From an uncultured Eubacteriales bacterium (lineage in GTDB: Bacteria; Bacillota; Clostridia; Christensenellales; UBA1242), in contig CAPRTS010000007.1 of NCBI GenBank assembly GCA_948695535.1, positions 3,164-67,163 on the forward strand: 64,000 nucleotides of DNA, in the 5' to 3' direction. The number at the start of each line of letters is the position of its first letter. Position 1 is the stretch's first letter. Shown here piece after piece: positions 7,191 through 63,550 of this stretch. The translations under genes and the position numbers were made by a program. Under the pieces are notes generated by a model that saw only the letters and a list, made by a program, of their open reading frames with translations, was not told the origin of the DNA and made no database searches.

Positions 7191-9768
7191 CTTTAATATT
7201 ATCTACTTTTGCTGATTTTTCGGCAACAATTTTCTTATGAGTATCTTTAAGTTGCATATCACGGGCGTAGGTAGTAGTTTGGTGAGTAATGTGCTTATTG
7301 AATTTAGTACGACGCCATAAGAAACTAAATACCGCCAAAACAATTGCTATTGCGGTAATCAAAGTCGGAATCAAGTACCACCAATTTTCGCCAAAAAAAT
7401 TATTCTTATCGCTATCGTTACTATCATTATCGGTTGGTTTATCGTCAGTGGCGGTGGCAACTTTAACAAGTTTATCGTTGGCGCTTAGGTTCTTGGTTGC
7501 TAAATTGTAATCAGTCTCGGTCATTTCCGTAACCGTCAAAGCGGTTATGTACAAATGACCGTCATTAAAAGCGGTTACATCTTTGCTGCCTAAGGTAACT
7601 AATAAGTTTAAGGTTGTGGTTGTAGAAGTGGCCTGGCAGTAGAAATTATAAGTCGTCAGTGCGTCAGGGGTGTTAGCGTCGAGTTTAACGGTGAAGTAAT
7701 CATCAAAACCGTTTAATTCTATAAAAGCATTCTCGCCACGAGCGGTAAGCGAAACGCGGTAGTAATTATCGGTTGTTAAATTGTAGTCCAAGCCGTATTT
7801 GGTAACAATAGTGGTTTGTTCTTCGTTACGTAAAGTAATACCATCGCGGTCAAAACCAATAGCCAACTTGTCGGCCACAGTATTATCGGTGGTTTGCCAC
7901 AATCCGGTAAGGTTAACGGGACTGGTTAAATCAACCGTAATCAGGGTCGTAGCGTTCGCATCATCGAATGGACAAAATTCAGTATCGCTACGGAAGTTAT
8001 CTAAAAAGGCGGTACCCGCTTTTTGTAAGGTAAAAACTAATTGGTAAGCACGACTGGCTGCGTTAGCATGTTCGGTAATTGCTAATTCGTAATGACGCCA
8101 CGTATTATCTTGGATCGTAAATTTACTTAATTCCACACCATCGGTGGTTTGAAAACTGACCGACAATGGGGCAGTGTCTAGGGCATGCGCGTCAAACGAA
8201 AAGTAAGTAGTTTCGCCCGCGGTGGTGGTCAGTGTGGGACTGGTGACTTGGTTAGTGGTCGCGGTGCCGTTGTGCAACATGTAGATATTATTATTTTCGC
8301 GATAATTTTGGTTAATTTTCCCCGGATTATCCAGTCCGTTAAAATACCAAAAGGCGGTGTTGACAATGCCGTTGGTGGTTTGTTCGGTTGTCCAACTGTC
8401 GGCTTTTAAGGGGTAGGGGTAAGTGTTGCTGTTCACATTCGCAGCGGTACCTAATTCAAAATTACCATTAGCCACCGACCAATCTTCAGCACTATTCAAC
8501 TCGTTGGTGCCTTGCACGCCCAACGCGTTGGCATTGGTCACGGCGTAATCACCCGCTACACGATAAATGCGTAAATCGTCCAAAGCGACCCAACCGGTAA
8601 CTTTACCTTCGTCTTCATTGCCTAAAACAAAACTCAACATGAATTCTTGTTTAGCGTCGTAGCCTGCGGTATAGAAAATGGTATTTAATTGCCAGCCGTT
8701 ATAATTGGGGTATTCGACGGCAGTAATCTTTTGGTAAGTGTTGCCAACGCAGAAATAAAATTGTGCTAAATCACTGGGCATTAACGAATAGAATTGAAAC
8801 ATATAAACTGCGTGCGGTAACGGTTGAAAAGTGTATTTACTTAAAGTTAAACGGGTATTATTGCCGTGGGCGGCCATTAACATAACATCTCCTTGACCGT
8901 CCTTAGCGTAGAAAGTATGATGATCATCGGTAAAATTCAAACGCGTAGCGACTAAATTATTATTGATGTTATTGGTGACAATAACGTTCGGTTGGGTACT
9001 GGTCGGGGCAGTAAAGTCAGTATTGGTTACGACTTGCACTTCCTCAACGGCAGTGTGGTCGGTTAAGTTGTAATACACTTGGTCGGCACTGTCTAAGGAC
9101 GCAACGGTATTATTAAAGGTGGTGACTGGCAAAGCGGTGACGGTCAGGTCACAAAAATACGCGGCACCATAAATCTCTTGATTAGGACTACCAAAATACA
9201 GTAACGCGGATAAAGTTGTGGCGACTAAACGGTCTGTCTGGATCATGAATTTGGCAGTATGCCACGCTCCGCGGGCGTGTAACGGCAAGTCATAGTCGCC
9301 TAAATAAAAATGACATTGGTCGGCAGGGTCGCCCATAACCCAGTACTCGACAGCAATTTCGTAGTAACTGTTGGCCGCCAAAGTTATTTCATTAAGACTC
9401 AAATTACCACTGGTTTTGGTATTGGCCTTGTTTGCCAATAAAAGGTAAGGATTGCGTTTGCCAATTTGACTGCTATCCAGTGTAATGTCACGGTAGGTTT
9501 TGTTATTGTGGTAGGTGTCGTTAGTTTGATTGGTAACTCGCAGTACTGTCAAATTGTCATTAGTGTTTTTTTGCCAATTATCTAAATTGTAATCCGTCGT
9601 GCTTTGTTGGAAAGGAATTGTTTTTTGCGCCGGTGCTGTATATTGGTAAGGACTGGTCGTGGCTGTTAACGCACTTAGTCCCGTTGCCGCTAACGGAGTG
9701 ACGGGACTAAATAGTATGACGGCAATAACGATTAAAGCACTTAAAATAATAAGTAATTTTTTTTTCAT
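7168..9768 (-). CDS. 866-aa surface protein with a signal peptide, CBM-like beta-sandwich modules, and a C-terminal TM anchor with a charged tail
   Basis: N-terminus: MKKKLLIILSALIVIAVILF. NGNFELG...W is reminiscent of CBM4/9/22-type modules. The C-terminus has an acidic stalk (TDDKPTDNDSNDSDKNN), the TM WWYLIPTLITAIAIVLAVFSFLW, and an RRTKFNKH tail. There is no LPXTG. Confidence 0.8.
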   Translation of the reverse strand: MKKKLLIILSALIVIAVILFSPVTPLAATGLSALTATTSPYQYTAPAQKTIPFQQSTTDYNLDNWQKNTNDNLTVLRVTNQTNDTYHNNKTYRDITLDSSQIGKRNPYLLLANKANTKTSGNLSLNEITLAANSYYEIAVEYWVMGDPADQCHFYLGDYDLPLHARGAWHTAKFMIQTDRLVATTLSALLYFGSPNQEIYGAAYFCDLTVTALPVTTFNNTVASLDSADQVYYNLTDHTAVEEVQVVTNTDFTAPTSTQPNVIVTNNINNNLVATRLNFTDDHHTFYAKDGQGDVMLMAAHGNNTRLTLSKYTFQPLPHAVYMFQFYSLMPSDLAQFYFCVGNTYQKITAVEYPNYNGWQLNTIFYTAGYDAKQEFMLSFVLGNEDEGKVTGWVALDDLRIYRVAGDYAVTNANALGVQGTNELNSAEDWSVANGNFELGTAANVNSNTYPYPLKADSWTTEQTTNGIVNTAFWYFNGLDNPGKINQNYRENNNIYMLHNGTATTNQVTSPTLTTTAGETTYFSFDAHALDTAPLSVSFQTTDGVELSKFTIQDNTWRHYELAITEHANAASRAYQLVFTLQKAGTAFLDNFRSDTEFCPFDDANATTLITVDLTSPVNLTGLWQTTDNTVADKLAIGFDRDGITLRNEEQTTIVTKYGLDYNLTTDNYYRVSLTARGENAFIELNGFDDYFTVKLDANTPDALTTYNFYCQATSTTTTLNLLVTLGSKDVTAFNDGHLYITALTVTEMTETDYNLATKNLSANDKLVKVATATDDKPTDNDSNDSDKNNFFGENWWYLIPTLITAIAIVLAVFSFLWRRTKFNKHITHQTTTYARDMQLKDTHKKIVAEKSAKVDNIKDEASHNN

Positions 9769-9803
9769 AGAACAACTAATAGTTTATACTACAATTGCTA
9801 TTT

Positions 9804-9832
9804 TTAGCAAGGGAAAAACTTTTACATATAAT
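9804..9832 (+). promoter_or_regulatory. Candidate sigma-A promoter for the Ppx/GppA gene
   Basis: TTAGCA (9804-9809), a 17-nt spacer, then TATAAT (9827-9832), in the divergent intergenic region. Confidence 0.4.
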
Positions 9833-9868
9833 CTATACAAAAAATAAATTTTGTGTTATCATTGGAAC

Positions 9869-11365
9869 ATGAGTAAAGTTGCAATCATTGAATTAGGTAC
9901 TAACCAAATTAAATTATCCTTGGTGCGTATTGAAGAAGGTAAGTATTTTGAAATCGAAAAAGAATATGCGGAATTTGTGGGTATCGACCACCACTTGGCG
10001 GACAGTGGTTTAATTAAGACCGTTAAAATTAAAGAATGTATCACCATTTTACAAATGTATAAACAAATTGCTTTGGCAAATCACGTGGATCAATTCTATT
10101 GTGTAGCATCGGCAAATTTAACCAAAGCCAAAAATTATCTTTCGTTTATTGAAGAAACTAATGCTGAATTGGATTTGGACTTTAAATTGCTAACCCAAGA
10201 AGAAGAAATAAATTCCTTATATACTGCGGTAGTTAACACTTTGGATATCAACAAAGGAATTATTGTTTCTATTTCAACGGCCAGCACGCGTATTATCAAT
10301 TATTGTCGTCGTGTGGTCTTGAATAGCCTGACTATTCCTGTGGGTGCCGCGAATTTTACCAATGTTGAAGACTTTAAGCAGGAGTTGCAAAACGCTGGTG
10401 ACATGTTCAAACAAGTTGATCGCGAAGCTCCGATTATTGGTTCAGACGAAATCTTCACCAGTTTTGCTCGCTTATCACGCAAGAAAACTAAATACCCACT
10501 TGATCTGGATCATAATTACAACACGACCAAAGATAATTTCCAAGCCATCTTATCTTTTTTGCAAGGTTTAGATGTCGAGAAGGGCGCCAAATTAAAAGGC
10601 ATTTCGGCTAATGGTATTGGCTACATTATGAACGGCATGCAAATTGCTTTGGCGATTATGGACTTTGTTGGGTTAAGTAATATTGTGATTAACCGCAATG
10701 CCCGTAATGTTGGTTTGGCTTACCGTTTAATGATGGGGGAAGATGAACGTCCGGTTACGGATGTGTGTTTGAACAGTGTGGAAACGGTACTGTGGGCGAA
10801 TGGACTGGACATGGAGCAAGCCAAATACCATTATTTCTTAGCGACTACTTTGTATTCGCAATTAAAAGTGTTGCACAAATTACCCCGTGTCTTTACTCGC
10901 ATTTTGAAAGTGGCAACCTTATTATATAATTTAGGGCACACGATAAATCAACTGTCGTTTAATAAGATTACCTATTACGCCATCTTAAACGCTAATCTTT
11001 ACGGTTTAAGTCATAAAGAGATTGTGATGGCGGCGTTTGTGGCCAGTTGTCGTAACTGGGATGACTTTATGCTGGCAGAATGGGTTAAATACAAAGACCT
11101 GATGAACGAAGATGACTTGGTAGCGGTGCGCAAGTTGGCGATCATTGCGGCTATGGCGGATATCATGAACATGCGTAAACAAAAAGTAGTCAAAGATATT
11201 TCTTGTGACGTGTTGGGGGACAGCGTAATTATTAAATTGGTAACTGATACAGATATGAAAAAAAATAAAGTTGACGTTGATGCGGCGAAGACTGAAATTT
11301 TCTGCTTGCGTAAATTAGCAAAAGAATTTACCCGTATTTATAAAAAGAATGTTGAAATTTTGTGA
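9869..11365 (+). CDS. Ppx/GppA-family phosphatase
   Basis: The N-terminal actin-like ATPase motif VAIIELGTNQIKLSLV corresponds to the consensus DxGSNSxRL. An HD-like segment (LLYNLGHTIN) lies in the C-terminal half. The start was set at ATG 9869 (MSKVAII), not the ORF-track 9851. Confidence 0.8.
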   Translation: MSKVAIIELGTNQIKLSLVRIEEGKYFEIEKEYAEFVGIDHHLADSGLIKTVKIKECITILQMYKQIALANHVDQFYCVASANLTKAKNYLSFIEETNAELDLDFKLLTQEEEINSLYTAVVNTLDINKGIIVSISTASTRIINYCRRVVLNSLTIPVGAANFTNVEDFKQELQNAGDMFKQVDREAPIIGSDEIFTSFARLSRKKTKYPLDLDHNYNTTKDNFQAILSFLQGLDVEKGAKLKGISANGIGYIMNGMQIALAIMDFVGLSNIVINRNARNVGLAYRLMMGEDERPVTDVCLNSVETVLWANGLDMEQAKYHYFLATTLYSQLKVLHKLPRVFTRILKVATLLYNLGHTINQLSFNKITYYAILNANLYGLSHKEIVMAAFVASCRNWDDFMLAEWVKYKDLMNEDDLVAVRKLAIIAAMADIMNMRKQKVVKDISCDVLGDSVIIKLVTDTDMKKNKVDVDAAKTEIFCLRKLAKEFTRIYKKNVEIL

Positions 11366-11419
11366 TGCCAGCGGCGACAAAATTGCTTGCCATAACGCGA
11401 AATAGTCAATAAACTAACA

Positions 11420-13420
11420 TTGATGATGAAGAAAGTGGGGAAATGGGCAGCCATTGGCCTGGGTGGCTTATTAGTCTTGGCGGTCATTCTTTTAATCATT
11501 GCTAATATGATTGAGAGTCGCGACATACTCAATTTGGCGGGTATCAACAGTCCTATTTTCGGTTACGGCATGTTGTTGATTCCGTTGTTGGCGTTGGCGT
11601 TTATTTTATTTAAATATTTTGATGTGGATAGTAAAGGTAAAAGTAAAACGGGAAAAGTATCCCAGTTCTATTCTAACCGTTGGATGACTAACAGTGAACG
11701 TGATAAAATTTACCTTTACACACGGGCTTCACAGTTAAAATCAATGAACAAAACGGGGCCATTGGCACGTTTTGAAGCAATTGGCAGTGATATTCACATT
11801 AACATGATCCCCAAAGATTACCACAGTATTGTTTTAGGTACTACCGGTGCCAATAAAACCCAAGGTTATGTTTTCCCGTTTATTTATACTTTGGGCTTTT
11901 CTAACGTTAAACCTAATTTGGTGGTTACTGACCCCAAAGGGGAAATTTATAACACAATGGCCGAAACTTTGCGCCAACAAGGTTATGACGTGCAGGTCTT
12001 TAATTTAAGTGAGCCTACGCGCAGTTCGCGCTGGAACCCATTTGAAAACGCGTGGAACATGTTTCAACGTGCTCAACACATTGAACGTGAAATCAAACGC
12101 TACGAAAATGCTGATCCGGCCAAAATGGGGTTACGAGTGGTGGCGTCCAGTTATCCGCCGGTTTGGTATGCTTTTAATGGTATTGCGTTCCCCAGCAAAG
12201 AAATGGCCGAAAACGAGATGCGTCTTTTCAAACAACAACTGATTTCTGATGCCGAAACCGACATCAAAGATATCTGTGCGGGAATTTGCCCAATAGAAAA
12301 TGAAAAAGATCCCAGTTGGGAACAAGGGGCTCGCGATTTGATCCAAGGTACGGCCATGGCAATGTTGGAAGACAGTTTGAACCCCAGTTTAGGTATGACT
12401 CGTGAAAAGTTTAATTTCTATAATATTGCGAAGATTTTGTCTTTGCGGGATAACGATCCGCAAGCCATGTTCAAAACTATTAAGAATTATTTTGAAGGGC
12501 GTGATAAATTATCTCCCGCAGCCGCTTTGGCACAAACGGTTACGTCCAATGCGGAAAATACCATGCGTAACTACTTCGGTATCGTGACACAAAAATTATC
12601 AATGTTTAATGACAAGGGAATCTGCTATATTACCAGTGGTACTGACGTTCGTTTCGAAGACTTTACCAAAAAACCAACGGCCTTCTTCTTGATTATCCCC
12701 GACCAAATTAAAGTGCGTCACCCGTTGGCTACTTTATGTATCTCGCAACTATATAAAGCGTTGGTAGCGGCGGCGAATCAGCGGGGCGGTAAATTGCCGT
12801 GGCCAACTTATTTTGTACTTGATGAGTTTGGTAATATGCCCAAGATTAATGATTTTGCAACCATTGTTACTGTCGCTCGGTCGCGCCGTATTTTCTTAAC
12901 CTTGGTTTTGCAAGATTATAAGCAGTTAGAAACCATTTATGGTACCGAAAGTGCAGTTACCATTCGTAACAACTGTAACCACCAAGTGTTTATTGGGGTT
13001 AACGACATGGATACTCGTAAAATGTTTTCGGATTTAATGGGCGACATGGAAGTTACTACTGAAAGCAAAAGTATCAGTCGTAATACGGGCAAGGCGGCCA
13101 AAGATGACGCTAACGGTGGCAGTGAATCGACCAGTACTAATACGGCCAGTCGTCCGCTGTTGCCTCCTAACGAATTACTGGATATGATCCCGGGAACAAT
13201 TTATATTTACTGTTTTGGCTTCCATCCGTTGAAAAGCAAGGTTACTTTATTTTATGAATGTCTTAATAAGGGCTTAATTAAATTAGTGCCGACGCCAGAT
13301 GTTTACGTGCCGGGTAAGTTTTTTGACGAAGCCGCGGTTTATTATGATATTCGTCGCCGTAATGATATCGTAATTCGACGTATGGATACCGTACAAAAGA
13401 AAGATCTATTTGAATGGTAG
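11420..13420 (+). CDS. Type IV secretion coupling protein (VirD4/TraG/TraD family), orphan
   Basis: Two N-terminal TMs. Motifs: NTP-binding LGTTGANKT, VVTDPKGEIYNTM, Walker B YFVLDEFGNMP, and ARSRRIFLTLVLQDYKQLETIYG. These are the T4CP hallmarks. The start could be 11420 (TTG) or 11423 (ATG). Confidence 0.85.
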   Translation: MMMKKVGKWAAIGLGGLLVLAVILLIIANMIESRDILNLAGINSPIFGYGMLLIPLLALAFILFKYFDVDSKGKSKTGKVSQFYSNRWMTNSERDKIYLYTRASQLKSMNKTGPLARFEAIGSDIHINMIPKDYHSIVLGTTGANKTQGYVFPFIYTLGFSNVKPNLVVTDPKGEIYNTMAETLRQQGYDVQVFNLSEPTRSSRWNPFENAWNMFQRAQHIEREIKRYENADPAKMGLRVVASSYPPVWYAFNGIAFPSKEMAENEMRLFKQQLISDAETDIKDICAGICPIENEKDPSWEQGARDLIQGTAMAMLEDSLNPSLGMTREKFNFYNIAKILSLRDNDPQAMFKTIKNYFEGRDKLSPAAALAQTVTSNAENTMRNYFGIVTQKLSMFNDKGICYITSGTDVRFEDFTKKPTAFFLIIPDQIKVRHPLATLCISQLYKALVAAANQRGGKLPWPTYFVLDEFGNMPKINDFATIVTVARSRRIFLTLVLQDYKQLETIYGTESAVTIRNNCNHQVFIGVNDMDTRKMFSDLMGDMEVTTESKSISRNTGKAAKDDANGGSESTSTNTASRPLLPPNELLDMIPGTIYIYCFGFHPLKSKVTLFYECLNKGLIKLVPTPDVYVPGKFFDEAAVYYDIRRRNDIVIRRMDTVQKKDLFEW

Positions 13421-54669: not shown

Positions 54670-56144
54670 AAAATTTTCTGTAAGCGTGGCATAATGTCGG
54701 GGAGGTGTTCGCAACCCAACGGGTGTGGCCACTGGTCATTACCAATTTCAACAGTAAACGCGGGTATGCCCATTCTTAAAGCCAAGTAATCAGTTAACCC
54801 GCCGTACGAATTTACGGACATGACGGCGCGATATTGAGTTAACTCGGCAATGTTTTGGGCAGTGGTTTGGTCGGCCACCCGACTGTAATAGATAACTTCA
54901 CCTTTACTGTGTAAGGCTAGGCTAAGCGTTGGGTGGAAAGTGTTGATTAGTCGTAACAAGGCTTTGGTTTCCGGTTCACTGTGGGGGCGTCGCCCAATGT
55001 AGTTAGCAGGAGCGGGAGTAGTTAGGTTGCTGTGACCTTGCCCCCAGCCCGCGTCGTAATTGACATTCAAATCAACTGCGCGGGCGTTAGCTTTCCATAG
55101 ACTAAAATCAGTACTACCAAGATTGATACGTTGTAAGCGTTGGTGATAACGGCGGGGTACAGTGGTTAACCCTTGGGTAGCCAACGCGACACCATCGGGG
55201 TTACAATTTGGTACTAAAATTACCGCTACATCGTGGGGTAGATCACGGCACAACGGCAAAAGACCGTGGACAGCATTAACAGTCAACCACTCGCGCGCGT
55301 GCATACCACCGGTAATTAACAGCCGTTGTTTAGCCGATGGCTCGCCGAATAGGTAGGCAATCAGTGGCCGGTGTAAAACACTGTAACCAATAATATTGAT
55401 TGAATCTAAGTATTGTAGGTCATGATAATCGCGTACGCCGTCGGGGAGTGTATCTGTTCCGCAAAAGTCTGTGCCGATTTGTAAATGTTGACGTCCAAAA
55501 TGTTTAATAAAGTACAAATAGTGTTTTACAAAATCACAAAAACCACAATGGGTTGTGTTTTTAGTTAAAAACTTGGGTACTAAACATAAACCTACGGTGC
55601 CACCAGATTTGATGATAGTGCGCACTTGGCGGTTGGTTAAATTGCGTGGGTGGTGGCAAAGTGTGTTTAAAGCGGTGTGGGTGCAAAGCATGGGTTGTGT
55701 GGTTACGCGGGCAAACTGGTAGAAACTACGACGGTTTAAGTGGGCAGTGTCAATTTGAATACCTGCATCTTCCAAAGCCTTTATGACTTGGTACCCCCAC
55801 CGGGTAATGCCGCGGCGACTTTTGGCACCACCCGCCAAGGAGTTAGCGGCGTTCCACGTTAAACCGACGCTGTGGGGGCGCAATTTGAGAAAAGCCTCCA
55901 AATTATCAGGCGTTAAAAACCAAGCGTCTTCAATGTGTAAACGACATACGGGATAGGCAGAATCGCGGTTTAATTTATCTATCAAGCGCTTTTTGACTTT
56001 GATGGTGGCCATCGGGTCAGGCAGGCGGGTAGTCCAAACCGATAACCAAATTTCACTAACACCGTCGCTTTTGGCTTTTTGTAAATAAGTGCGCAACTTG
56101 CTGGCGGGTAGGGCTAACAATGCGTCATTATGTAAATCAATCAT
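54648..56144 (-). CDS. Fusion of an M19 (renal-type) dipeptidase domain and an M14 (gamma-D-Glu-mDAP peptidase-like) carboxypeptidase domain
   Basis: N-terminal half: IDLHNDAL, VGLTWNAANSLAGG, IQIDTAHLN, CTHTALNTLCHHPRNL (M19 pattern). C-terminal half: LITGGMHAREWLT (the HxxE zinc site), VPNCNPDG, VDLNVNYDAGWG, PHSEPET, ALHSKGEVIY (M14 pattern). There is no signal peptide. Confidence 0.8.
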   Translation of the reverse strand: MIDLHNDALLALPASKLRTYLQKAKSDGVSEIWLSVWTTRLPDPMATIKVKKRLIDKLNRDSAYPVCRLHIEDAWFLTPDNLEAFLKLRPHSVGLTWNAANSLAGGAKSRRGITRWGYQVIKALEDAGIQIDTAHLNRRSFYQFARVTTQPMLCTHTALNTLCHHPRNLTNRQVRTIIKSGGTVGLCLVPKFLTKNTTHCGFCDFVKHYLYFIKHFGRQHLQIGTDFCGTDTLPDGVRDYHDLQYLDSINIIGYSVLHRPLIAYLFGEPSAKQRLLITGGMHAREWLTVNAVHGLLPLCRDLPHDVAVILVPNCNPDGVALATQGLTTVPRRYHQRLQRINLGSTDFSLWKANARAVDLNVNYDAGWGQGHSNLTTPAPANYIGRRPHSEPETKALLRLINTFHPTLSLALHSKGEVIYYSRVADQTTAQNIAELTQYRAVMSVNSYGGLTDYLALRMGIPAFTVEIGNDQWPHPLGCEHLPDIMPRLQKIFHLLTGA

Positions 56145-56223: not shown

Positions 56224-56586
56224 GGGGGCGATTGGCTTCGACGGTTGGCGGGCGGTTCGTTAAGCATACCGGCGGGGAAACCATACGTTAATTGGTTTCA
56301 AAAAGACAAATGCAAGTCCCAAAAATGCAAACTTGGCTTTGGCTGCGTAAGTAGTTAAAGAACCAACGAACGACGCGTTTAACCCTTTTAACGATCGTTC
56401 GCCAACAAAGGGTGAATGGGACAGTATCTCCTTGGTTAACGGAAATATTGTTCGGCACCAAAGTTAACCCTAACCGTATTACTTTGTCGTTAATTTAGCG
56501 GTTGGTAAATAAGATAACGACTATGTATGTAGAAGTACGAACCAGAAACCAATCGGACCCGGGTTCAATTCCCGGCGTCTCCACCA
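56224..56586 (+). ncRNA. ssrA: tmRNA (transfer-messenger RNA)
   Basis: The 5' end GGGGGCGATTGGCTTCGACGG pairs with the 3' end CGTCTCCACCA, including the G3:U pair. The T-arm is CCCGGGTTCAATTCCCGG, and the CCA is encoded. The tag reading frame is GCA AGT CCC AAA AAT GCA AAC TTG GCT TTG GCT GCG TAA (56312-56350), which encodes ASPKNANLALAA*. Confidence 0.9.
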
Positions 56587-58120: not shown

Positions 58121-58180
58121 TTTTTACTCCTTTTTTGCCTTAAAAGGCAATGGCTCGCCATTGCTGCTTGGTTACCCGTC

Positions 58181-58285
58181 CCACTGGCGACAGCAAGGAC
58201 AGTCAAGGGTCTGCCACACAGTGGACGGCGTTTTATGCCTAACGGGAGATAAATCGCCGCCCTTGACGGTGCTTGCCGCCAGTGG
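58181..58285. repeat. GC-rich nested inverted repeats (long imperfect hairpin) upstream of the serine recombinase gene
   Basis: The outer arms CCACTGGCG (58181-58189) and CGCCAGTGG (58277-58285) pair. The inner arms GTCAAGGG (58202-58209) and CCCTTGAC (58260-58267) pair. Smaller hairpins, such as CCACACAGTGG, lie inside. Confidence 0.6.
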
Positions 58286-58421
58286 TAGCAGAGACAAAAC
58301 ATTGTTTTACAGTAGATTTAATTCACTGATTTAATTTGTGGGTTTTTGTCGTAATCTTGTGTAACTTGACGATTATAAGTAATTTATTGTAAAACCGTGA
58401 ACTTTTGCCTTCGCTCCTGCC

Positions 58422-58541: not shown

Positions 58542-58638
58542 ATCGTGTGGGCAAGGCGGCTGCGCCGCCATTGCCCACGGGCGTGTATAGTATTACCACG
58601 CCACCCCGTAACACTGTAACAACTTAAAAGGAGTGAAA

Positions 58639-58836
58639 ATGAGTAAAACAAGTCAGTTACAATCATTACCAAGTCCATTTGACGGCATTTCGGTTATTTA
58701 TTTTGATGATGAAAACCGCAATCATCATGTGCGGTTACCAGCAGATAAAAAACTAGCCAATCAGTTGGCTAAATTGATTTATCATGATGCCAAAATCGCA
58801 ATCAGTGAAAATTACCAAAAGGAGCAAACAAAATGA
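58639..58836 (+). CDS. Small (65-aa) protein translationally coupled to the tyrosine recombinase; possible accessory or DNA-binding factor
   Basis: AAAGGAG (58627-58633) lies 5 nt upstream of ATG 58639. The stop overlaps the recombinase ATG (ATGA). I recognised no family. Confidence 0.5.
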   Translation: MSKTSQLQSLPSPFDGISVIYFDDENRNHHVRLPADKKLANQLAKLIYHDAKIAISENYQKEQTK

Positions 58837-59768
58837 ATTATTTAACTTGGTTAAACGAGTGGTTGGAAAATTATGTAAAGCCAACTCATAAGGCACGGAC
58901 TTACGAGCGTTATCAACAAATTGTTAATACGCACATATTGACAAATTTAGGGGATTATGACTTAAACGCAATCACGCCCTTACTTCTGCAGAAGTACATT
59001 ACCAACTTGTTGCAACATGGCAATCGACTAACTGGACAGGCATTATCCGCGAATACTGTCAATGGTATTATCTCCATTTTACAGTCGTCATTGAAAATGG
59101 CGTATACTTTGGGTTTGTGTCGTGAATACGTCGGTAACAAAATTGTGCGTCCCAAAATCACCGAAAAGCAAGTTGCGTGTTTCAGTTTGACAGAGCAAAA
59201 AAAAATGGAGCAATACATTTTAACCAGTAAAAAATACAAGCTTTATGGCGTGATAATTTGTTTGTATACGGGACTGCGGATTGGCGAATTGTTAGCGTTA
59301 GAGTGGGCCGATCTCGATTTTAGTAAAGGCATTTTGACGGTATCCAAAACCGCATACGATAACCACGGCCAACGCTATATTGACCGCCCGAAAACTGCTA
59401 ATTCGCATCGTATGATTCCGCTGCCCAAACAATTAGTTCCCGTGTTGAAAGACTTGAAAAGAAATACGCAATCTAACTGGGTAGTGGTGGACAAGAATAA
59501 CCAGCCAGTATCGGTCCGCAGTTACCAACGCAGTTTTGAATTATTGCAATACAAATTAAAAATTGCTCATAAAGGTTTCCACGCTTTACGGCATACTTTC
59601 GCCACGCGAGCGTTAGAGTGCGGTATGGACGTAAAATCACTTTCCGAAATTCTTGGACACAAAAACACTAATATAACACTAAATCGTTACGTACATTCGT
59701 TGTTGGAACACAAGCAAGAAATGATGTCAAAATTGGGTAAAATTTTGACATCCGCGCCAGAGAAATGA
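58833..59768 (+). CDS. Tyrosine recombinase (phage-integrase/XerD-like family), candidate invertase
   Basis: 311 aa with an N-terminal SAM-like core-binding domain. Catalytic motifs: TGLRIGELLAL (Arg), HALRHTFATRAL (HxxR) and LGHKNTNITLNRYVH (His, Tyr). Confidence 0.9.
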   Translation: MNYLTWLNEWLENYVKPTHKARTYERYQQIVNTHILTNLGDYDLNAITPLLLQKYITNLLQHGNRLTGQALSANTVNGIISILQSSLKMAYTLGLCREYVGNKIVRPKITEKQVACFSLTEQKKMEQYILTSKKYKLYGVIICLYTGLRIGELLALEWADLDFSKGILTVSKTAYDNHGQRYIDRPKTANSHRMIPLPKQLVPVLKDLKRNTQSNWVVVDKNNQPVSVRSYQRSFELLQYKLKIAHKGFHALRHTFATRALECGMDVKSLSEILGHKNTNITLNRYVHSLLEHKQEMMSKLGKILTSAPEK

Positions 59769-59797
59769 ATAAACTGAGAAAACTGTTATGAAATTGT

Positions 59798-59824
59798 GTT
59801 CATCAAATATTTTAATCGGTGTAC
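59798..59824. promoter_or_regulatory. Candidate recombinase core site L (arm-spacer-arm)
   Basis: GTTCATCAA-ATATTTTAA-TCGGTGTAC. The first 19 nt are the exact reverse complement of 59934-59952. Confidence 0.6.
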
Positions 59825-59868: not shown

Positions 59869-59925
59869 TCTGTTATTAAAATTGTACATTTACACAACAT
59901 TTACCGCCACAAAATTCTAAGTTCT

Positions 59926-59952
59926 GTTCATCAATTAAAATATTTGATGAAC
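59926..59952. promoter_or_regulatory. Candidate recombinase core site R (arm-spacer-arm)
   Basis: GTTCATCAA-TTAAAATAT-TTGATGAAC has perfect 9-bp inverted arms. Its asymmetric 9-bp spacer is the reverse complement of the site L spacer. Confidence 0.6.
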
Positions 59953-59991
59953 AAAATTTTTTTATTGTGTGCATGAAATAGGAGTTTACAA

Positions 59992-60930
59992 ATGGCGAAT
60001 CAATCACTTAATAAGGCAAAAATTGAAAAAAACGATGAATTTTATACGTTGATGAGTGATATAGAAAATGAATTATCGCGCTATGATTTCGCTCAATTCA
60101 AAGATAAAATTGTTTATTGTAATTGCGATGATCCAACTTGGAGTAATTTTTTTAAATTTTTCACTAAATGGGGAAAACGCATGGGAATTAAAGAAGTCCA
60201 TTTTACAAATTACGCTAATACAAAAAGAAAATGGAATAAACAATTAACACTTTTTGAAGCGCTTGACTTAAAAGAAAGTGCAGAAGATGATAGATGTGGT
60301 ACTGCACATCACTGGACATTTTATCCAGATTCTAATCGAATTGTTAAAAAAAGTCTTAAGGGGAACGGCGATTTCCGCAGTCCTGAGTGTATTGAAATCT
60401 TAAAAAGGTGCGATATTGTTGTGACTAATCCACCATTTAGTATTTTTAATGACTTTCTAAAGTTACTAATTGAATATAAAAAATATTATTTAGTCATTAG
60501 CGATGATAATAAACTATCTAATATTGATATTTTCCCTTTGATTAAAGATAATAAACTTTGGTTGGGTTATACTCGTGTAAAAAAATTTTTGCAACCAGAC
60601 GGCACATATAAAACTTTTGGTAATAAATGTTGGTATACTAATTTAGAAGTAACCTACCGTAGGCAACCGATTGTCCTTCATGATCAAGACCTAACTCAAT
60701 TCAAAAAGTATGATAACTACAACGCTCTTGAAATTTCTGAAGTTAAGTATATTCCTGATGGATATTATGAGCCCATCGGATTACCAATAACATTTTTGCA
60801 TAAATTTTGTCCTGAGCAGTTTGAAATAGTTGGTATGTCTGGTGTTGATATAAAGATTAAGGGTGGACGATTTTATGTAAGTGGCAGACGCTTACAGCCA
60901 AGATTAGTTATTCAAAGGAGAAAAGCATAA
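59992..60930 (+). CDS. N6-adenine DNA methyltransferase (EcoRI-methylase-like family)
   Basis: The N-terminus is NDEFYTLMSDIENEL...IVYCNCDDP and the catalytic motif IV is VVTNPPFS. AGGAG lies 8 nt upstream of the ATG. Confidence 0.85.
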   Translation: MANQSLNKAKIEKNDEFYTLMSDIENELSRYDFAQFKDKIVYCNCDDPTWSNFFKFFTKWGKRMGIKEVHFTNYANTKRKWNKQLTLFEALDLKESAEDDRCGTAHHWTFYPDSNRIVKKSLKGNGDFRSPECIEILKRCDIVVTNPPFSIFNDFLKLLIEYKKYYLVISDDNKLSNIDIFPLIKDNKLWLGYTRVKKFLQPDGTYKTFGNKCWYTNLEVTYRRQPIVLHDQDLTQFKKYDNYNALEISEVKYIPDGYYEPIGLPITFLHKFCPEQFEIVGMSGVDIKIKGGRFYVSGRRLQPRLVIQRRKA

Positions 60931-60931
60931 G

Positions 60932-62008
60932 ATGCAATATCAGATCGCAATTAGAACAATTAAAGATTTGCTAAATGACAAGGTTTATTTAACCAATATT
61001 AATATGCAAAGGAAGTATATTTATAATCATGAACAGGCTTCGCATTTACTTGATAGTATCCAAAAGGGGATCCCAATCCCAGCAATTTATTTGTGGGATA
61101 ACTGTGATGGCACTTATGACGTATTAGATGGGAAACAGAGAATAACTGTCATGCGTTTATATGTTAATCCTAAATACTTACCTGGCGGTGTCCATAACTT
61201 TTTTATTGATCACATGAACAGTAATGATTTTGAAAGTTATCAAATCCCAGTGATTATTTGCTCGGGTACGGAAGAAGAAAAGGTTGAAACATTTAAGCGA
61301 ATCAATACAACTGCAGTGGCCTTAAAAGAGTTTGAAATTTACAATGCATTGTATCAAGGAACTTTTGTTGAAGAACTCGGTAACTGGGGTATTGGCTTAT
61401 CTCCAAATGAAGAATTATTCTTCGGCAAAAGTATTAGGGGTGAAAACTGTATCAGGGCAGTAAAATTATTTACCGAAAGACTAGAGGATTATTTTAAGCA
61501 CAATCGTAATCAGTCTTTTGTGAATGGTTTGAAGAAGCAAATTGATGTTCTGGTTAAAACCACACTTGATTTATTTAATGATTACGGAAATGATTATTAT
61601 ATTTTAGCCAAAATTGTACTTGAAAATATTAATAACAATTCGTTAATTGCCAGTTGGAAATTAAACCAAAAAACAATTAATGATTTGTTGGTAGAGTATG
61701 CTAATAATGGTGAATTAGCCAACGCTCCAAGTCGCGAAAGTTTTTATAAAGAATTATTGGGTTGCTATACAGTTACTGGGTTAGACGGTAAACGCTTCTT
61801 TACGAAAGATGATAAAAAAACTTTGTATGAAAAATTAAGTAAAGGACTAAGTAGCGGAAAAAGGATTTGCCCAACCTGTGGTAAAGAGTTTAGTTTTGAT
61901 CAATTTGAAGTTGACCACGTTTTACCTTGGAGCAAGGGTGGCAAGACGTGTTTGGCTAATGCGCAGTTATTATGCAAAAGCTGCAATGTAAAAAAAAGTA
62001 ATCAGTAA
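60932..62008 (+). CDS. DUF262 (ParB/GmrS-like) - HNH nuclease fusion
   Basis: N-terminus: IPIPAIYLW...VLDGKQRIT, a DGQQR-type DUF262 motif. C-terminus: CPTCGKEF...EVDHVLPWSKGGKTCLANAQLLCKSCNVKKSN, an HNH domain with two CxxC pairs. The gene starts 1 nt after the methyltransferase stop. Confidence 0.85.
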   Translation: MQYQIAIRTIKDLLNDKVYLTNINMQRKYIYNHEQASHLLDSIQKGIPIPAIYLWDNCDGTYDVLDGKQRITVMRLYVNPKYLPGGVHNFFIDHMNSNDFESYQIPVIICSGTEEEKVETFKRINTTAVALKEFEIYNALYQGTFVEELGNWGIGLSPNEELFFGKSIRGENCIRAVKLFTERLEDYFKHNRNQSFVNGLKKQIDVLVKTTLDLFNDYGNDYYILAKIVLENINNNSLIASWKLNQKTINDLLVEYANNGELANAPSRESFYKELLGCYTVTGLDGKRFFTKDDKKTLYEKLSKGLSSGKRICPTCGKEFSFDQFEVDHVLPWSKGGKTCLANAQLLCKSCNVKKSNQ

Positions 62009-62058: not shown

Positions 62059-63144
62059 CTAGAATGGCAGATAAAATTCGTCAGGTGAATTAATTTTCTC
62101 ATCAGAGGGCACATCTTCGAAAATACTTAATAACATATTGATTCTTTCTAATAATTCGTCATAACAGATAATACTTATAGAACGTAACTCATTCCTAAAA
62201 TTCTCAAAACTGTTCTTCGCATCTGGTGTAAGTGTGGAGTAATTACCAACCAACAAGATACAGTGAATGTTGTTTGCTTCTACATCTAATTTTGAATTAA
62301 CTTTAAGAGAATTAAATTCTTTATACAAGGAATCTTTTTGTGAAAGTAATTGTATTAAACTACCTGTTAGCTCGGTCGTAATTGGTAAAATCCCAGCACG
62401 ATATGAAGTATTTTGAGTTAGTGTAGTAACTGGCGTTTTTATCTCAATAATGGATACGTTTTTTGTTATCCCGTTTTGGTATATAAAATCAGGCTTTTTT
62501 CCACCATTAAAATCAAAACTCTTTCCGCCAACATAATGACATCCTTGCATAATCATATAGGGGGTGTTGAATAATTGTGATAGTATCCATGAGTTTTTCT
62601 CAAATAAAGGTTGCCAAAAGCCAACTTCGTCGCTGTTATTTAGATTATTTTTTATTTCTTCCTTAATTCGTTTAAGATATTCAATATTTAATGCCCAATT
62701 GATATTGGTTAAATCAACTGATTTTAATAACTTGACTAACTCTTCCTTGTTTTTTAGCAGTTCTTTGAACTTATCATATTCTTCATCTTTTAAGGTGTAA
62801 GTTACTTCTTCCCATGGTGTGTTCTTATCTTTTACGAGTTTGTATCTCTCAGTTAATGCTTGCCATAATTTGTATGTTTGGCTGCATGATAAGGCAAGCT
62901 CAAAACTTTCACCTGATTTAATCGACCTCTTGTTTAATGAGATAACATCATTAAAAGTGCTATCACTCTTTTTTACAGTATAGATGAACTTTCCACGTAA
63001 TTTTTCTTGATAGTTTTTTGGATTATTAATTTGTTGTAACTCAAAACGGACTTGGGAACGACCTGATTCGTCTAAAATAACAATTGGTGTAACATCGGCT
63101 GTAATGTATGATGTTGGTGTAATAGTAATTTCATTATTATCCAT
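62059..63144 (-). CDS. Shedu-like defence nuclease (DUF4263, PD-(D/E)xK fold)
   Basis: 361 aa. The C-terminal domain reads GGKKPDFIYQNGITKNVSIIEIKTP (D...ExK), followed by LIQLLSQKDSLY and HCILLVGNYSTL. This matches the DUF4263/SduA pattern. Confidence 0.7.
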   Translation of the reverse strand: MDNNEITITPTSYITADVTPIVILDESGRSQVRFELQQINNPKNYQEKLRGKFIYTVKKSDSTFNDVISLNKRSIKSGESFELALSCSQTYKLWQALTERYKLVKDKNTPWEEVTYTLKDEEYDKFKELLKNKEELVKLLKSVDLTNINWALNIEYLKRIKEEIKNNLNNSDEVGFWQPLFEKNSWILSQLFNTPYMIMQGCHYVGGKSFDFNGGKKPDFIYQNGITKNVSIIEIKTPVTTLTQNTSYRAGILPITTELTGSLIQLLSQKDSLYKEFNSLKVNSKLDVEANNIHCILLVGNYSTLTPDAKNSFENFRNELRSISIICYDELLERINMLLSIFEDVPSDEKINSPDEFYLPF

Positions 63145-63238
63145 GATTTATTGTAGCATATAATATTGTGAATGACTATTTAAGTGTGTAATGCTAACCT
63201 GACAATAGAAGTTGGTCCTATTAGCAATCAATATTGTA

Positions 63239-63289
63239 GTGTGCGTATTCAAGGCGTGCAGTTCCACCAAACGTACCAAAGATTGAACC
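63239..63289. repeat. Predicted attR (attP left arm + core + attB right arm)
   Basis: GTGTGCGTAT (63239-63248), N14, TCCACCA (63263-63269), N12, ATTGAACC (63282-63289). Confidence 0.55.
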
Positions 63290-63550
63290 TTTCAAGTTAA
63301 GGTAACGCCTTATGACCGGGAATTTTACCCCGGCGGGTTCTGTCACTGTGTGCCAGATAGCTCGCTCACTACGTTCGCTCGCTATCACTTCCCGCTATTT
63401 CTACCACAGACAAATAATCCAAAATTCGTCGCGTAGCGGAACTAGAATGTTATTTTATCGCATGTGTTTTATGCGTAGAACTGTTTGGGGATAGTAATGA
63501 AATTTTGCAGGTAATTTTTAGTGGCAGTAAAACGCCCGTTTCCGTAAATT

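Follow-up and report, generated by a model that had tools for sequence, protein, structure and literature searches.

Textbook Type II restriction enzymes cleave DNA at or near a fixed sequence, require only Mg2+ and are blocked by methylation from a cognate enzyme; R.EcoRI, the nuclease of the EcoRI system, is a PD-(D/E)XK enzyme. GmrSD and BrxU instead join an N-terminal DUF262 (ParB-like) domain through helices to a His-Me nuclease; they occur singly, and their targets are modified cytosines. Another DUF262/His-Me nuclease, SspE, cooperates with a host-encoded DNA-modification module and offers a precedent for the gene pair described here (PMC10952713). In a 64,000-nucleotide (nt) stretch of contig CAPRTS010000007.1 from an uncultured Eubacteriales bacterium (hereafter the window), we found an EcoRI-family N6-adenine DNA methyltransferase gene followed directly by a gene for a DUF262-HNH nuclease. 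The pair is a Type II-like restriction-modification (R-M) system of an already catalogued, apparently unstudied family. It is probably a two-gene module of classical polarity, in which the methylase would mark self and the DUF262-HNH protein would attack unmarked DNA. The elements of the pair are the following, with protein positions in amino acids (aa).

59977..59981, + strand: Shine-Dalgarno AGGAG of the methylase gene, 10 nt ahead of the ATG at 59992 (from the sequence)
59992..60930 (stop included), + strand: EcoRI-family N6-adenine DNA methyltransferase gene, 312 aa
60424..60438, + strand: catalytic motif IV TNPPF of the methylase (aa 145–149), found in the sequence and aligning with DIVVTNPPFS of M.EcoRI
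60915..60920, + strand: Shine-Dalgarno AAGGAG of the nuclease gene, within the 3' end of the methylase gene and 11 nt ahead of the ATG at 60932
60932..62008 (stop included), + strand: DUF262(ParB/Srx-like)-helical-HNH endonuclease gene, the putative restriction component, 358 aa
60932..61321, + strand: DUF262/ParB-like nucleotide-binding domain (aa 1–130), from residue conservation and a BrxU profile match
61127..61141, + strand: DGKQR motif (aa 66–70), corresponding to the nucleotide-pocket motif DGQQR of GmrSD, BrxU and SspE
61322..61831, + strand: all-helical middle domain (aa 131–300), candidate specificity element by predicted function
61832..62005, + strand: zinc-ribbon HNH nuclease domain (aa 301–358), from Pfam, invariant residues and CxxC pairs

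The two open reading frames lie on the same strand with the 1-nt spacing that the initial annotation had read, the junction being TAA (60928–60930), g (60931), ATG (60932–60934). Because the nuclease Shine-Dalgarno lies inside the methylase gene, translation of the nuclease can be coupled to that of the methylase. The G+C content is 32% over the pair as against 41–45% across most of the window, and chance is not expected to yield open reading frames of this length in DNA so rich in A+T. Counts of internal promoters and terminators were no higher than in shuffled sequence. As in Type II R-M systems generally, methyltransferase and endonuclease are encoded by separate, adjacent genes.

The first gene had been called an EcoRI-like adenine methyltransferase with a TNPPF motif, and we found this to be correct. 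The protein matches Pfam EcoRI_methylase PF13651 over its full length (4.7e-83, aa 6–286) and PADLOC MTase_II (3.4e-74), and over its full length it shares 38% identity with genuine M.EcoRI, whose gene adjoins that of R.EcoRI on an E. coli plasmid (E 6e-65). In the alignment, the VYCNCDDP and DIVVTNPPFS motifs are common to both proteins, and the methyltransferase catalytic motifs are intact, as is typical of a Type II system. There are at least 8000 homologues of the methylase; a sequence search found no solved structure for it. The specificity of the window enzyme does not follow from 38% identity to M.EcoRI.

The predicted DUF262-HNH anatomy of the second protein was likewise borne out, with Pfam matches to GmrSD_N/DUF262 (3.8e-18, best stretch aa 10–80) and to HNH PF01844 (2.4e-14, aa 313–358); the C-terminus also matches the HNH families PF14279 and PF13395. 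The Pfam domain assignments of both proteins are far beyond chance. In an alignment of 70 homologues reaching down to 25% identity, Q26 and D66-G67-x-Q69-R70 are invariant, and at least 90% of the sequences have R27 and K68. No variation was seen at L131 or E135, and N125 is fixed among 22 homologues and kept in at least 90% of the 70. We take the Q26/R27 and D66–R70 motifs, together with N125, L131 and E135, to be DUF262 signature positions. The same 70 proteins all share the HNH residues C313, C316, D328, H329, N343 and N352, and at least 90% of them have C348; the window protein itself has both CxxC pairs, C313/C316 and C348/C351. The nuclease active site is intact, as expected for the endonuclease of a Type II pair. 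The DGQQR motif, to which DGKQR corresponds, has a nucleotide-pocket role in GmrSD, BrxU and SspE (PMC4619093, PMC10952713).

The AlphaFold2 model of the nuclease (mean pLDDT 89.5) has a mixed alpha/beta N-domain, an all-helical middle (approximately aa 131–300) and a small C-terminal beta-beta-alpha unit. A Foldseek search of the PDB placed BrxU (7p9k, GmrSD family) at the top with 1e-4, followed by the CTP-binding N-domains of ParB/Noc and by the Gme HNH nickase. A family sequence profile searched against the PDB gave the Gme HNH nickase (4h9d, 1.2e-7) and the N-terminus of BrxU (2e-4). All of these solved-structure matches cover single domains only, and neither Pfam nor the fold searches found a recognisable sequence-reading domain in the helical middle.

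How does the locus compare with the described systems? It shares with EcoRI a methylase of the same family, and both are two-gene mobile cassettes. However, the window nuclease, with its ParB-like and HNH domains, is unrelated to R.EcoRI (no similarity by BLASTP, E 3.4), and the gene order is methylase then nuclease, the reverse of that in EcoRI plasmids. The likeness to GmrSD and BrxU lies in the N-terminal DUF262/ParB-like domain with a DGQQR-type motif, the helices and the His-Me nuclease that follows them. In contrast to those enzymes, the window nuclease is approximately 220 aa shorter, has a canonical zinc HNH (PF01844) instead of DUF1524, and belongs to a clade that always has an adjacent cognate methylase. 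DUF1524 (PF07510) had no Pfam match in it at E <= 0.01. Hence the GmrSD-type layout proposed in the initial annotation holds as a resemblance, with BrxU as best fold match, but not as a class assignment: since DUF1524 is not detected and the gene is not solitary, the window nuclease is not a GmrSD member.

With the SspABCD-SspE system the pair shares the coupling of a DUF262/His-Me nuclease to a host-encoded modification module. It differs from SspE in that the modification would be N6-methyladenine (m6A) from a single methylase rather than phosphorothioation by four proteins, and SspE matched the nuclease model only weakly (6jiv, E 0.33). The DUF262 part also matches the PADLOC models of Menshen NsnA (1.2e-22) and PD-T4-2_A (3.5e-9), proteins described as having no DUF1524 nuclease domain (PMC10952713). 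The likeness to these two is confined to the N-terminal DUF262 domain, and we found no NsnB, NsnC or PD-T4-2_B genes near the pair, whose neighbours are an integrase and Shedu.

Conservation of the two genes as neighbours had been named in the initial annotation as the test on which the pairing could fail, and the pairing passed it. We counted linkage on the best 80 loci from GTDB contigs, taking one genome per species. In 47 of these 80 the gene next upstream, on the same strand, encodes an EcoRI-family methylase; the 47 are all the untruncated loci whose nuclease identity is 28% or more. Of the 47 junctions, 39 measure from -32 to +4 nt. The hosts of linked loci include Clostridia, Bacteroidales/Prevotella, Treponema and other Spirochaetes, Mycoplasma, Actinomycetota, Paenibacillaceae and Cohnella, as well as the candidate-phyla-radiation lineages Staskawiczbacteria, Yanofskybacteria and Saccharibacteria.

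The loci that depart from the tight spacing are informative. One Bacteroidaceae locus (L006, 3759–5869) has two tandem EcoRI-family methylase genes and a 128-nt gap before the nuclease, and a second locus (L023) has an 832-nt gap between methylase and nuclease. On the Enterococcus dispar plasmid pK205-4b-C (L081, 61–4699), the methylase and nuclease genes, each intact, flank an inserted optrA, a gene for oxazolidinone/phenicol resistance. Resistance genes also adjoin related pairs elsewhere: erm(A) in the case of E. faecium megaplasmids, mef(F)/msr(G) in that of a Macrococcoides canis plasmid. One pair of the family, WP_188020217.1 / WP_188020218.1, is encoded on pMiCAN82a of Macrococcoides canis.

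Full-length nuclease homologues occur on 40 plasmid records, with the methylase directly upstream in most of those matched. There the annotation typically runs 'adenine-specific methyltransferase EcoRI family protein' and then 'DUF262 domain-containing protein', and three annotated plasmids likewise have the order methylase then nuclease. Outside enterobacterial EcoRI-type plasmids, most plasmid-borne EcoRI-family methylases are partnered by a DUF262-HNH nuclease. Enterobacterial plasmids themselves were considered as further examples and rejected: the small E. coli (pMB5823_5), Klebsiella and Raoultella plasmids that we opened carry EcoRI-type systems, and the Klebsiella plasmid matches to the nuclease were of partial coverage only.

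A metagenome scan with the window protein alone returned seven loci, with the methylase linked wherever upstream DNA was present. The main clade of the family, of the Macrococcoides type, is larger, with at least 8000 matches that span Bacteroidales, Spirochaetes, Anaerolineae, Echinicola and ocean samples. Its members (P0241–P0360; L097–L104) are exactly 360 aa long and 70–74% identical. In all eight places inspected, the methylase lies upstream of the nuclease with a junction that overlaps or measures 2 nt. One identical protein (P0260) stands in four different neighbourhoods and has the methylase every time; its neighbours include an integrase, mercury-resistance genes and MmeI-like genes. 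The uniformity of the main clade, high for a restriction enzyme, together with the spread of this one protein suggests a recent and wide horizontal dispersal. An exhaustive search placed the nuclease family at 548 clusters at 50% identity (E <= 1e-10). The window copy is a divergent gut-Clostridia member of a very abundant family, and few contexts of EcoRI-family methylases outside enterobacteria are as common as the DUF262-HNH pairing. The pair had been described as unusual, a view that its presence across many phyla and plasmids overturns.

DUF262-HNH proteins without an EcoRI-family methylase form a separate group. Those among the 80 loci show 23–27% identity and have a median length of 442 aa; their neighbours vary from Type I HsdM/HsdS, Type III and MmeI-like genes to unrelated ones, and some are solitary. 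A neighbour-joining tree with midpoint rooting separates the 49 methylase-linked proteins from the 32 unlinked ones as two exclusive clades, and we conclude that partnership with the methylase is a clade-defining trait that separates the window clade from its Type IV-looking relatives. These relatives bear on a second explanation, in which a nuclease of the GmrSD/BrxU kind, dependent on modification (Type IV or IIM), would be aimed at foreign base modifications, and the methylase would adjoin it by loose association or none, as an orphan, say, or as a counter-measure to another system. This agrees with the layout of DUF262 plus His-Me, with BrxU as the top fold match and with the habits of the longer sister-clade proteins, which stand alone or in Type I, Type III and MmeI-like loci as Type IV genes often do. 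Nevertheless, we consider this explanation very improbable, as obligate linkage, overlapping junctions, tightly correlated divergence (r = 0.95, below) and joint cassette transfer would be unexpected for unrelated neighbours, and the nuclease lacks DUF1524, the defining nuclease domain of GmrSD.

The two genes diverge together. Across 49 loci the pairwise distances of methylase and nuclease correlate with r = 0.95, a value reached by 0 of 2000 Mantel permutations. With the linkage and the homology limited to the cassette (below), this amounts to the joint inheritance and evolution typical of a Type II R-M pair. Within the nuclease, the middle helical domain is the most variable (35% mean pairwise identity, versus 51% for each flanking domain), and its distances track those of the methylase best among the nuclease domains (r = 0.95). 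Variability combined with tracking of the methylase is how a specificity element behaves, and this correlation, which is only that, makes the middle domain a candidate for the element that sets specificity.

The same domain bears on another version of R-M logic, in which the nuclease, instead of cutting both strands in the classical way, would be an SspE-like effector of low specificity that nicks unmethylated DNA or arrests its replication, sensing the presence or density of m6A and not a strict site. SspE, the sole characterised DUF262 nuclease that works with host modification, does nick (PMC10952713), the closest solved HNH by sequence belongs to a nicking enzyme (Gme HNH 4h9d, 1.2e-7), and the helical middle has no recognised sequence-reading domain. 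On the other hand, co-divergence of methylase and nuclease that is strongest in the variable middle domain (r = 0.95) fits matched sequence specificities, and a Type II profile, PDLC03418, covers the family. We therefore regard a nicking effector as unlikely, and favour the two-gene module of classical polarity.

Two decayed loci were found. One of them (L086) has an intact methylase, with the DUF262 and HNH parts of the nuclease split from each other; in the other (L087) the methylase is fragmented and the nuclease has no HNH domain. No intact nuclease beside a broken methylase was seen among the inspected loci. This is the pattern predicted for a nuclease that is toxic without its methylase, although the sample is small. 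Of the two interpretations offered by the initial annotation, synteny, co-divergence and these decay patterns best support the first, a classical R-M logic with a DUF262-HNH effector.

Nor does the pair lie outside existing catalogues. PADLOC labels it MTase_II plus REase_II, and its profile PDLC03418 ('Type II restriction enzyme', 372 positions) matches the window nuclease at 3.6e-31 (107 bits, aa 24–358), so that the nuclease, like a Type II endonuclease, resembles a catalogued restriction-enzyme profile. The same profile matches the family end to end, with 453 bits for a Macrococcoides canis plasmid protein, 381 for Enterococcus dispar, 303 for E. faecium and 285 for Cohnella; the window nuclease is a distant member, 27–30% identical to the matched plasmid proteins. 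Standard tools, given this end-to-end match, already file the pair as Type II R-M. NCBIfam has no family for either the methylase or the nuclease and returned only weak Cas9d/IscB HNH matches. The labels on hundreds of homologues, including 120 close homologues of the best PDLC03418 scorer, stop at 'DUF262', 'HNH endonuclease' or 'GmrSD ... domain-containing'. Our literature search found no paper on the pairing of an EcoRI-family methylase with a DUF262-HNH nuclease, and a GmrSD phylogenomics paper, an HDRM review, a conserved-domains review and the Menshen paper contain nothing specific on it. The Menshen paper does voice the general idea that ParB-DUF262 domains adjoining lone methylases might target unmodified genomes.

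Taken together, these data suggest the following mechanism. The upstream EcoRI-family enzyme would place N6-methyladenine at a defined sequence in host DNA, and the downstream DUF262-HNH protein would cut or nick DNA that does not carry its partner's mark. Translation would yield the methylase first and then, by way of the 1-nt stop/start junction on the same message, the nuclease, an order and a coupling that favour protection before restriction. The helical domain, possibly with the ParB-like domain, may read the target and its methylation state; nucleotide binding at the DGKQR pocket may gate the HNH domain, which would carry out cleavage. Within the R-M reading, we give somewhat less than an even chance to the proposal that the invariant DGKQR pocket makes cleavage nucleotide-dependent, as in BrxU, GmrSD and SspE. 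Such dependence, if real, would set the enzyme apart from textbook Type II. More doubtful still, and offered tentatively, is the broader proposal that the DUF262-HNH partners of EcoRI-family methylases may form a mechanistically distinct and very widespread class of GmrSD-like nucleases, nucleotide-gated, of reversed polarity in that they would attack unmodified DNA, and switched off by cognate m6A.

Several points weigh against the favoured module. For every family member, the support comes from sequence and predicted structure, and nucleotide gating in particular is read from conservation of a motif. The decay evidence consists of two loci. The window nuclease fits the Type II profile PDLC03418 only moderately (107 bits). 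PADLOC R-M profiles descend from REBASE reference sets, as this one probably does, but we traced no seed enzyme for it: the PADLOC paper gives no description of its R-M models, and the REBASE 'gold standards' in Oliveira et al. (2014) were applied through BLAST where Type II enzymes were concerned. Furthermore, the characterised DUF262 nucleases other than SspE, namely GmrSD and BrxU, attack modified and not unmodified DNA. Finally, palindrome avoidance in the window singles out no recognition site: GAATTC, with 10 occurrences where 17.8 are expected (z = -1.9), does not stand out from other palindromes.

Several short palindromes, among them AGCT (0.38), CTAG (0.29), TTTAAA (0.34) and ATTAAT (0.41), are strongly depleted relative to Markov expectation over the whole window, which hints at other restriction pressures on the genome.

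The pair sits in a mobile island that is integrated at ssrA, and the overlap between a recombinase gene and the tmRNA gene marks the left end of the island. The genes around the pair are the following.

56224..56586, + strand: tmRNA gene, tag ASPKNANLALAA
56495..58120, - strand: serine recombinase gene, 541 aa, overlapping the 3' end of the tmRNA gene
58833..59768, + strand: tyrosine integrase gene, followed by the methylase-nuclease pair
62059..63144, - strand: Shedu SduA gene (PADLOC 1.2e-104), converging on the pair

No att repeat of the island was found within the window, and its right end falls beyond the window. A related Clostridia metagenome-assembled genome (L001, 91% protein identity) runs collinear with the window, the shared stretch beginning at 54817 and ending precisely on the nuclease stop codon at 62008. 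In two further loci (L002 and L003), homology to the window is limited to the methylase and nuclease genes, and since these two genes are all that is shared, the pair itself is a unit of transfer. The Shedu slot is variable: L001 holds in its place (7252–12504) a McrA-like HNH gene, a GHKL ATPase gene, an unidentified gene and a C5-cytosine methylase gene. Homology between L001 and the window is found on both flanks of the slot, resuming on the right side near 63200–63550.

This mobility raises the further explanation that the pair is mainly a selfish addiction cassette, which would stabilise its island or plasmid by post-segregational killing and have little role in phage defence. Its frequency on small plasmids, resistance plasmids and islands and its movement as a minimal cassette are in keeping with such a role, although addiction is compatible with restriction, as any Type II R-M system can do both. 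The context is moreover that expected of a defence gene, with Shedu adjoining the window pair and other defence genes in the same slot of the relative. We accordingly give this explanation next to no weight, less than any other considered here, and retain the R-M module of classical polarity.

Just 5' of the methylase ribosome-binding site lies a perfect 10-bp inverted repeat, TGTTCATCAA-N10-TTGATGAACA at 59924–59953, followed by a T-run; a half-site copy stands 128 nt earlier, at 59797–59806. We rejected this repeat as a conserved operator because the palindrome is not kept in the closest relative, L001, where the methylase open reading frame appears to begin within the right arm. Farther upstream, between the recombinase gene and a small open reading frame, a G+C-rich non-coding stretch (58125–58320) forms a long imperfect hairpin with arms at about 58181–58209 and 58261–58293. 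As RNA, this stretch has a folding energy of -76.2 kcal/mol (z = -4.4), with 0 of 200 shuffles equally stable. A second G+C hairpin lies at 58549–58576. Neither hairpin has a match in Rfam, and the region is approximately 80% conserved in L001. It could represent a non-coding RNA, a recombination site or terminators.

The family to which the window pair belongs spans Firmicutes, Bacteroidota, Spirochaetes, Mycoplasma, Actinomycetota, candidate-phyla-radiation bacteria and plasmids, among them carriers of optrA, erm and mef/msr. We found no published account of a ParB-like/HNH nuclease as the methylation-blocked half of an R-M system, a polarity opposite to that of GmrSD and BrxU, with which it shares DUF262. 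The interest of the pair lies in the enzymology of such a nuclease: its DUF262 domain may register a missing mark, restriction may need a nucleotide, and the methylase family may hold a new specificity. For annotation, a 'DUF262 domain-containing protein' directly downstream of an EcoRI-family methylase should be read as a restriction endonuclease. If the reversed-polarity proposal is true, a ParB/Srx-like domain would read methylation state, and the class would bridge Type II and Type IV restriction.

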